From Promethearchaeia archaeon (GTDB lineage: Archaea; Asgardarchaeota; Lokiarchaeia; Sigyniarchaeales; SOKP01), in assembly GCA_029856155.1 (NCBI GenBank), contig JAHQWL010000040.1:125032-189031 (forward strand): DNA of 64,000 nt, in the 5' to 3' direction. Of the stretch, positions 10,483 through 28,266 are shown piece after piece. The position numbers were made by a program, and so were the translations under genes. Within the stretch, counting starts at the first letter, position 1. Every line of letters begins with the position of its first letter. Below the pieces are notes generated by a model. It had not been told where the DNA came from, searched no databases, and saw nothing but the letters and a program-made list of their open reading frames with translations.

Positions 10483-10668
10483 ATGAGCTCAGAAATTAGT
10501 GAAGAAGTTAAGAAAGAAATTTTTGACTTAATTTCGACTCCTGGAATTGAGATTGAAGATATTAGCGAAAAGGTAAACTTAGATTGTGATACAATTATGA
10601 ATATTTTATCTGAAGAATACTTAAAACATGATTTGAATCATGGTCGTAGGCTATGTTGTAGATTTTAA
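10483..10668 (+). CDS. Small hypothetical protein, HTH-like, ending in CCRF
   Basis: 61-aa ATG ORF filling an intergenic gap. Confidence 0.55.
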   Translation: MSSEISEEVKKEIFDLISTPGIEIEDISEKVNLDCDTIMNILSEEYLKHDLNHGRRLCCRF

Positions 10669-10746
10669 TTTAATTCTGGAAAAATTTTTTAATGTTGTTT
10701 TATTCTAAAACTTACTAAGTTTAAAAAAATATTATTCTAAGAAACT

Positions 10747-10820
10747 TAGGACGCAAATTTGTGCGGTTTCAATATAATAAAAATATTGAAATGGAAATAA
10801 ATTGTAATTTCGCGTTCCTA
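10747..10820. repeat. Imperfect long inverted repeat/hairpin upstream of rpl11
   Basis: TAGGACGCAAATT...AATTTCGCGTTCCTA outer stem and inner TTTCAATAT/ATATTGAAA stem. Confidence 0.5.
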
Positions 10821-10872
10821 CCTTTTAGAATATTTTTTAAACCCAGATTTATTAAAAAAACGGTGAGAGTAT

Positions 10873-11440
10873 ATGAGTGAAAAAGGAAAAATTGTTGTAA
10901 AGGCTCTTGTGACTGGTGGGAGTGCTTATATTTAATAATCATTTCGATTAAACCCCAAATGCATCAGGAGGGCCGCCTATTGCATAAAGCGTATCGCTTT
11001 TGTCAAATTAAGGTAAAGGTCCCTCCGTAGGCCCCACGGGCATAAATATAAAAGACGTGGTCGACGAAATCAACAAGCAGACACAGGTATTTAGGGGGTT
11101 AACGGTACCCGTTAGAATTGAATGCGATCCAGAGACAAAGCAATTTGAAATCTTCATTGAAACGCCTTCTACAGCATCATTATTACTGAAAGAAGTTGGT
11201 GTTGAAAAAGGGAGTTCTAGTTGTTCAGAAACAAAAATAGGAAATTTGACACTTGATCAAGTTCAAAACGTAGTGAAGGCTAAAACAGATAAATTTTTGG
11301 ATAAAACAATTAAAGCAGGTATAAAAACAGTGTTAGGTACAGCATTATCAGTGGGGTTAACGGTAGAAGGGCAAGATCCAAGAGCAATCCAAAAAAAAAT
11401 AGATAATGGGGAATTTGATGATATCATAAGAGGTGATTAA
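10873..11440 (+). CDS. rpl11: Ribosomal protein uL11 split by two introns, join(10873..10922,10960..10980,11017..11440), 164 aa
   Basis: Spliced N-terminus [46 protein letters not shown] matches the uL11 signature; GGTGA before ATG 10873; first gene of L11-L1-L10-L12. Confidence 0.92.
10923..10959 (+). other. rpl11 intron 1 (37 nt, relaxed BHB)
   Basis: Central helix TGGG(10917-20)/CCCA(10954-57), bulges AG^T and AA^T, inner hairpin TAATC/GATTA; contains stop and frameshift; junction could slide 1-3 nt on a TGC repeat. Confidence 0.8.
10981..11016 (+). other. rpl11 intron 2 (36 nt, BHB)
   Basis: Outer helix GGAGGGCC/GG(T)CCCTCC, central helix GCCT(10975-78)/AGGT(11011-14), bulges AT^T and AA^A, inner hairpin AAAGCG/CGCTTT; contains in-frame TAA. 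Confidence 0.87.
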
Positions 11441-11446
11441 GAAAAT

Positions 11447-12175
11447 TTGAAAGTCGATGATAAATTATTAAAGAAATCGTTAAACGCTGCTATTAATTTT
11501 TCTATAATGAAGAAAGAAGGATTTAAAGAAAAAGTTAGGAAATTCGACGAGTCTATTGATCTCATAATTAATATTAAAGATATTAACTTAAACGATCCAA
11601 AAAACAGAATTGATAAAGAAATTATCTTATCAAATGAAGTAGTTTCAAATGATAAGCCTAGTATTTGTGTAATTGCGTCAGATGAGATTTTACTAGAGGC
11701 GAAAAAACTTGGGATAGACACTCTAGATTCCAGCGGTTTGATTAATTTGAATAATGAAGAGAAAAAATATAAGAAAAAATTTGCCAAAAAATATGAATAT
11801 TTTGTTGTAGAAGATAAAATGATGAGAGATGTTGCTCGATACTTAGCAAGATTTCTTGGTCCAGTTGGTAAAATGCCAAAACCTTTCCCTACAGGATATG
11901 GGATCATTTCCAGCCCAGAAGATTTAAACGTCGCTTATGAGCGATATAAAAAAATAATTAGGATTCAAATGAAAAAGCAACCAATTATTTTCGCTAAAAT
12001 CGGTAAAAAATCTCTGGACAGGGAGAAGTTATATGAAAATATTAAGGTTGTAGTGAATTTTATTGCTGATCAAATGCCACATAAATTTAACAACTTTAAA
12101 TCTATGTATCTTAAATCTACAATGGGAAAACCCGTGAAAGTGACAGAAGAGTTCCTAAAAAGTATTGAGGTGTGA
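11447..12175 (+). CDS. rpl1: Ribosomal protein uL1
   Basis: RKFDESIDLIIN, LGPVGKMP, YLKSTMGKP; operon position. Confidence 0.93.
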   Translation: MKVDDKLLKKSLNAAINFSIMKKEGFKEKVRKFDESIDLIINIKDINLNDPKNRIDKEIILSNEVVSNDKPSICVIASDEILLEAKKLGIDTLDSSGLINLNNEEKKYKKKFAKKYEYFVVEDKMMRDVARYLARFLGPVGKMPKPFPTGYGIISSPEDLNVAYERYKKIIRIQMKKQPIIFAKIGKKSLDREKLYENIKVVVNFIADQMPHKFNNFKSMYLKSTMGKPVKVTEEFLKSIEV

Positions 12176-28173: not shown

Positions 28174-28266
28174 TGGCGGCCCTCGAGGGGAATCGAACCC
28201 CTATCCCTCCGCAGGATAACTGGGTTTGAAGCCCAGTGTCAGAGACCACTCCAACCGTCAAGGGCC
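28174..28266 (-). tRNA. selC: tRNA-Sec (UCA), 9/4 fold, encoded CCA
   Basis: 9-bp acceptor GGCCCTTGA/TCGAGGGCC, 7-bp D stem with 4-nt loop, CT-TCA-AA loop, long variable arm, 4-bp T stem, GCCA end. Confidence 0.93.

Follow-up and report, generated by a model that had tools for sequence, protein, structure and literature searches.

How does an archaeal ribosomal protein gene whose frame is interrupted twice near its start yield a complete protein, and what constrains the 21 nucleotides of coding sequence that lie between the two interruptions? The window analyzed here is a 64,000-nucleotide stretch of a Promethearchaeia archaeon genome, and the features described are on its forward (+) strand unless stated otherwise. 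The rpl11 gene opens the gene order rpl11-rpl1-rpl10-rpl12. Its exon 1 (10873..10922) holds codons 1-17 and ends in phase 2, in the register given by the BHB motif; it is followed by intron 1 (10923..10959; 37 nt, relaxed BHB), a 21-nt micro-exon (10960..10980) that runs from the last base of Ser17 to the second base of Ile24, intron 2 (10981..11016; 36 nt), which is in frame, contains a TAA and has an hBH-type motif, and exon 3 (11017..11440), which matches Pfam L11_N positions 17-58 and L11. The next operon gene, rpl1 (11447..12175), is uninterrupted. As the earlier note had proposed in placing a micro-exon between two BHB introns, removal of both gives an intact L11: a 164-aa uL11 with its ASGGPPI motif, matching intron-less relatives through the junctions with no residue gained or lost. 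In the ORF as conventionally annotated, the L11 N-domain is missing its profile positions 1-16, and rpl11 is present once in this 97%-complete genome. Both introns must be removed because translation would end at 20 aa if intron 1 were kept and at 25 aa if intron 2 were kept.

From sequence comparison we infer, with very high confidence, that the rpl11 inserts are spliced tRNA-type (BHB) introns. At the register that restores the protein, the central helix has 4/4 pairs in both window introns, and the predicted cuts fall two bases on from this helix, within 3-nt bulges. The exon strand of the 4-bp central helix of intron 1 (10917..10920) pairs with 10954-10957; a 4x3 internal loop separates it from the exon helix, and the intron helix begins with 1 bp in the window allele. 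Intron 2, with an inner hairpin at 10986-11000 and its central strand at 11011-11014, has an adjacent exon helix (hBH) whose 3' strand (11018-11026) lies inside exon 3, and is therefore of relaxed BHB form. The strict hBHBh' arrangement, with both flanking helices directly adjacent, is not found in window introns 1 and 2. EndA alpha with its Tyr-His-Lys triad, EndA beta and RtcB are all encoded in this genome, one of the two EndA paralogues carrying the catalytic triad, and Asgard EndA is an (alpha-beta)2-type enzyme, which can cut relaxed motifs (PMC5829648).

The same geometry recurs in a family set of 142 non-redundant rpl11 alleles drawn from 150 genomes and 80 metagenome loci. Introns are absent in 77/142 alleles; elsewhere they lie at CDS nucleotides 50 (20 alleles), 71 (25), 83 (5) and 100 (31), all within codons 17-34 and at no other site in the gene. 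Every one of the 81 introns blocks translation if kept, by frame shift or stop. At least three of the four central-helix pairs are present in 81/81 introns, and all four in 68 (shuffled introns at fixed register: 1.9 expected); this null is lenient, the best of 1-6 protein-equivalent registers being taken, yet carriers share one register per site. Outside the family, L11 frames were full length in the genomes searched. Sites 83 and 100 are further intron positions, occupied in relatives and not in the window allele (e.g. L047, L066, L003 and L022). L003, L004, L093 and L131 are three-intron alleles, and micro-exons of 29, 33 and 50 nt also occur. An apparent 60-nt intron in L083 proved to be an N-terminal alignment artefact and was dropped.

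Are the codons that form the splice helices free to vary? The micro-exon contacts exon 1 through 10964-74, exon 3 through 10967-74 and intron 2 through 10975-78. It thus lends strands to both introns, as previously noted, and every pairing named there is present: TCA (10964-66) with exon 1 (10910-12), CATCAG (10962-67) with CTGGTG (10913-18), TGGG (10917-20) with CCCA (10954-57), GGGCC (10970-74) and GGA (10967-69) with exon 3 (11018-26), and GCCT (10975-78) with intron 2 (11011-14). The exon helix of intron 1 is longer than was seen then, pairing 10902..10912 with 10964-10974 in ten pairs and one G-G mismatch; it has codon fixation, and RNAalifold recovers it together with the central helix, unprompted, as a consensus. 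Across the 20 carriers 96.5% of its cells are paired, and the mean energy of the exon-exon duplex is -17.4 kcal/mol in carriers versus -6.7 in non-carriers. The codon set GTG13/GGG16/TCA19/GGA20 occurs in 20/20 carriers of intron 1 (site 50), from four genera, and in 1/122 non-carriers (10/10 independent pairs, p 0.002); because this signature was defined from carriers that share haplotypes, with cassette transfer among them, it does not count independent origins and alone cannot separate selection from hitchhiking. Six of the ten exon-helix-1 pairs are invariant, and their pairing accordingly has no covariation support. Central helix 1 is 100% paired in the 20 carriers, and its first pair varies (U-A 11, A-U 8, U-G 1), the Gly15 third base covarying with the intron base opposite. 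Across intron 2, the third bases of Gly21 and Gly25 form A-U in 13 carriers, G-U in 4, G-C in 3 and U-A in 1 and are unpaired in 4, so that they pair in 21/25 carriers versus 60/117 other alleles. Both sites hold compensatory changes, each of which may represent one or few events. We consider it very likely, from these comparisons, that the pairing of splice-helix bases is under selection. The earlier suggestion that splice-site structure constrains the coding sequence is borne out, in that the codon set is absent from intron-less relatives and compensatory changes are seen.

That suggestion had been framed around GC-rich synonymous codons, and here the outcome is divided. Of the codons listed in the earlier note, 8/9 end in G or C, against a genome GC3 median of 0.21 (post hoc P ~1.5e-5), and the GC3 of codons 25-32 is 0.75, a value reached by 0/77 intron-less alleles. 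The micro-exon itself is not unusually GC-rich relative to intron-less alleles (GC 0.62 vs 0.59; GC3 0.29 vs 0.21), 33/77 of which are equally high; it is GC-rich mainly because it codes for Ala-Ser-Gly-Gly-Pro-Pro. Among the listed codons, only GGG21, CCG22 and CCC26/TCC27 make a helix contact; in three double-intron alleles TCC27, an Ala to Ser change, makes the helix of intron 2 longer. Codons 37-45, which belong to no helix, carry the GC-ending run further. GC richness was rejected as a selected trait, since TCA and GGA, two of the four codons fixed in carriers, have A as their third base and most GC-ending exon-3 codons lie outside conserved helices. As read from the aligned alleles, the constraint is complementarity, not GC content.

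A further question is how two motifs can be used when they share a strand. Positions 10967..10974 do double duty, serving exon helix 1 as its 3' strand and exon helix 2 as its 5' strand. In nearest-neighbour models, on which all statements of folding and order here are based and which depend on the folding window, forcing both motifs costs an extra 1.6-5.2 kcal/mol over the sum of each in 6/6 alleles with a 21-nt exon, and the penalty is 0.0 in the eight double-intron alleles whose exons measure 29-50 nt. Exclusion is partial, because the models allow both central helices, taken by themselves, to form together. In modelled growing transcripts the probability of central helix 1 is 0.7-0.96 until exon 3 emerges, after which it is mostly lost, and motif 1 is favoured first in co-transcriptional folding in all six 21-nt-exon alleles. 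At modelled equilibrium, the window allele and L003 favour motif 2 and L097 and L011 favour motif 1. The minimum free-energy fold of the window allele pairs exon-3 codons 29-33 with exon 1; motif 1 is predicted to cost 4.7-7.8 kcal/mol in this allele while both introns are in place, and 0.9-5.7 after intron 2 has been removed. Given this cost, the model leaves an efficient excision of intron 1 unexplained, except if excision takes place during transcription or is assisted by the enzyme. Taken together, the models make it likely that the introns are removed one at a time, in an order set by kinetics and by the allele. Ordered splicing as put forward in the earlier note thus survives as one-at-a-time removal, and a fixed order does not, since the preference differs among alleles.

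The earlier note had also placed a fold of CTGGTG with CATCAG in the precursor as a competitor of the TGGG/CCCA central helix. On modelling and the RNAalifold consensus we rejected this: the predicted probability of the fold in the precursor is <=0.01 once exon 2 is complete, with a transient maximum of 0.2-0.4 at +10 nt, and the modelled competition is instead that of the two exon helices over 10967-10974. The pairing is intact in 14/20 intron-1 carriers, and in the local nicked or ligated product its modelled probability is ~0.8 in most carriers, with the junction in a 6-nt loop; in the remaining carriers the product is predicted to keep the inner exon helix. Its sole covarying pair (U-A 9, A-U 6, U-G 3, unpaired 2), which L030 and L045 break, perhaps goes back to one event. 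On these models, CTGGTG/CATCAG would be a product state that may aid ligation.

Could the inserts instead remain in the message, the gene being broken or misassembled, or a truncated L11 being read from GTG 11057? A 127-aa ORF does begin at 11057, and L11 is dispensable in some bacteria. We find this barely credible, as an independent metagenome contig (L091) has the same two inserts, the inserts of 65/142 alleles fall precisely on one or more of four positions, show BHB geometry in every case and leave the spliced protein undamaged, and amino acids are preserved in the upstream exons. An alternative that accepts splicing is that the codon pattern is the hitchhiking of one ancestral pairing haplotype with no continuing selection. 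Introns and their flanks do show clear block exchange, the difference between TCA and AGT at Ser19 involves a switch of three bases, for which recombination is the best explanation, and covariation can be shown by few of the invariant pairs. However, intron interiors have diverged (median identity 0.55), one-sided changes preserve pairing (U-G/C-G), and the paired third bases at -11, +7 and +10 from the cut have zero entropy in carriers, whereas the nearer, unpaired third base at +4 has 1.72 bits; the background of 19 four-fold sites has a median of 1.60 bits, with none invariant. Hitchhiking alone is disfavoured because it predicts the opposite of this pattern of fixed paired and variable near-junction positions, and we regard it as unlikely. 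Continuing selection on pairing in spliced introns is the reading retained here. Exon skipping was rejected separately: it is in frame (157 aa), and the outer sites, read from the sequence, have no central helix to join them.

Within this reading, two more specific schemes for the micro-exon appear improbable, at about the same low level. One is a strict obligatory order in which the first excision creates the second site, as in some multi-intron pre-tRNAs. Free-energy-ordered intron removal has been reported for Cyanidioschyzon multi-intron pre-tRNAs (PMC3978253), and in the window allele and L003 motif 2 is dominant at equilibrium and motif 1 becomes cheaper after intron 2 leaves. However, each intron also exists by itself, its local structure unchanged, in many alleles, which indicates that neither needs the other; in the models both motifs form, whether the allele has one intron or two, with a preference that depends on the allele, motif 1 being favoured in L097 and L011 and co-transcriptionally first in all six. 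The other scheme is a regulated switch, in which binding of L11, L1 or L10, or a passing ribosome, would shift the 21-nt exon between two states, select the motif and set L11 output by feedback. Autoregulation is common in ribosomal operons, models make the two motifs mutually exclusive, and unspliced RNA gives only short peptides; were such a switch real, the lineage closest to eukaryotes would offer a prokaryotic example of feedback through splicing. A role as a negative regulator has been proposed for the cbf5 intron (PMC2738675). However, the regulated L11 output raised in the earlier note finds no support: with 77/142 alleles intron-less, the pair at sites 50 and 71 that defines the 21-nt exon occurs in only 6, near the 3.5 expected under site independence, near-identical populations differ in their intron sets, and the favoured motif varies among the six. 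A pattern for the L1 site matched 3/142 alleles, the window allele not among them; the pattern is crude and did not recover the genome's own 23S L1/L11 sites.

A candidate control element upstream is far better conserved and present in all alleles. This three-hairpin RNA element (10714..10791), a candidate leader of rpl11-rpl1-rpl10-rpl12 marked by conservation and compensatory pairs, occurs 80-160 nt ahead of the start in 135/135 relatives (upstream of rpl11, L002-L170), with or without introns. Its stems are CTAAG/CTTAG, which never varies and so has no covariation support, CGY/RCG (U-A 66, C-G 65) and a 9-bp AU-rich stem. The element is single copy in the genome and unannotated, and Rfam gave no significant match over 10600-11600, the element included. 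L1 autoregulates L11-L1 and L1-L10-L12 operons; the window shares the order of L1-regulated operons, and its leader matches no Rfam family. Sequence comparison thus makes the three-hairpin element a better candidate than the introns for operon control, as a possible new ribosomal leader. A 61-aa ORF without a Pfam match (10483-10668) precedes the leader.

What, then, is the micro-exon? We put the probability at roughly 70% that the best explanation overall is a tolerated folding constraint of near-neutral introns, not a built switch. [quoted passage not shown] An intron would persist only where synonymous codons build these helices, with purifying selection keeping the paired bases, as the comparison of carriers indicates, and recombination would carry intron and flanking codons from one relative to another as a single cassette. 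Because the 21-nt exon lends the same eight bases to either helix, the two motifs are modelled to fold and be cut successively, motif 1 dominating while the transcript stops short of exon 3 and motif 2 afterwards. Once intron 1 is gone, the CTGGTG/CATCAG zip would close around the junction.

The case for cassettes is that differences between close relatives cluster around the introns. L003 and L092 have 11 differences in nt 45-72 and zero in nt 1-44 and 73-101, and L153 and L155, 98% identical downstream, differ at 11/13 third bases around the introns versus 6/117 downstream. The block pattern is directly visible in these alignments, and recombination is its probable mechanism. On the gene tree, which has 375 columns and many open forks, each site shows 18-23 changes of intron state. 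At site 71 two dissimilar intron families are present (L034, L098, L100, L101 and L137 versus L001, L018 and L028), and intron identity is unrelated to gene identity (Spearman 0.10), which suggests either that introns were gained independently at a single pre-formed hairpin or that they were widely transferred. As a separate observation, the intron-less alleles L117, L118, L122 and L136 have flanking codons nearly those of the site-71 carrier L120, and L117 differs from L120 at 0/10 third bases, which points to precise gain or loss without exchange of the flanks.

Why do introns sit where they do? Ranked among 430 junctions of intron-less alleles for a stem closing a 7-nt loop, sites 71 and 83 come 2 and 5, because the Gly-Pro-x-x-Gly-Pro codons are self-complementary, and site 50 comes 427th. 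Site 50 needs fitted codons, and site 100 uses its own intron stem. Introns thus land where the codons of the protein form an anticodon-like stem (71, 83) or, at site 50, where synonymous codons fitted to the purpose supply one, and codon choice near the rpl11 junctions is not neutral. The site-100 intron has GGC32-ATA33 as its signature, present in 31/31 carriers, and the window allele has this pair at 11038-11049 with no intron there; its nearest relatives, L003 and L092, carry the intron, and the window allele may have lost it recently. Precise loss via cDNA would be rare at site 50, whose own signature is seen in 1/122 alleles without the intron, and possible at sites 71 and 100.

The closest known system is the crenarchaeal cbf5 pre-mRNA intron (Watanabe 2002; Yoshinari 2006; Yokobori 2009, PMC2738675), which like those of rpl11 is short, lies in a protein-coding gene and has a relaxed BHB. 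The two are also alike in a cut, predicted for rpl11, after the second bulge base, in their hetero-oligomeric EndA and in patchy gain and loss (PMC2738675). In contrast to cbf5, with one intron at one position, rpl11 has four positions within 50 nt and at most three introns per allele, with micro-exons of 21-50 nt and overlapping helices, in a ribosomal protein gene of an Asgard lineage; splicing of cbf5 was shown by cDNA, whereas that of rpl11 is deduced from sequence. Multi-intron archaeal and algal pre-tRNAs (PMC4090602, PMC3978253) likewise hold several BHB introns in a short stretch that are removed sequentially, and in pre-tRNAs, as in rpl11, introns have been gained repeatedly where the motif can form (PMC4090602, PMC3978253; Asgard census, doi 10.64898/2026.10.13.758758). 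That census, a preprint, does not mention mRNA, cbf5 or ribosomal proteins. As in pre-tRNAs, the spliced junction at site 71 lies in a 7-nt anticodon-like loop; unlike in pre-tRNAs, the rpl11 helices are written in the codons of a conserved protein. HAC1/XBP1 splicing uses the Ire1 nuclease and two hairpins and is stress-regulated, and an exon-exon zip after cleavage has been proposed for it. It resembles the scheme proposed for rpl11 in pairing a protein-catalysed mRNA cut with tRNA-type ligation (RtcB link: PMC10275265); rpl11 differs in its BHB/EndA system and in showing no sign of regulation.

A literature search that had most subscription papers outside its reach returned no report of Asgard mRNA introns, and in the literature searched tRNA-type splicing in archaeal coding sequence is documented for cbf5 only. 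To what is known of cbf5-type mRNA introns the rpl11 case adds more than one intron, a micro-exon, structural constraint at the level of codons and splice helices that overlap, and here it is a core ribosomal gene, in a lineage related to eukaryotes, that has a multi-exon layout. The 21-nt exon offers a compact in vitro test of EndA on overlapping motifs. There is also a consequence for annotation: gene callers truncate L11 in ~45% of the rpl11 alleles of this family. In the window, gene calling starts at GTG 11057 and yields a 127-aa L11 without the N-terminal motif; GTG is the true rpl11 start codon in many relatives.

Other features of the window were recorded in passing. An 11-nt core in intron 2 (10991-11001) is shared with another insert in the window (1769-1779); with five copies in the genome, the match alone is weak. 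ARAGORN found one tRNA in the 64 kb, for SeC (28174-28266, reverse strand), and multi-intron tRNAs were probably missed. Two tandem ORFs upstream of the operon (7841-8515 and 8570-9196) resemble fumarylacetoacetate hydrolases by eye.
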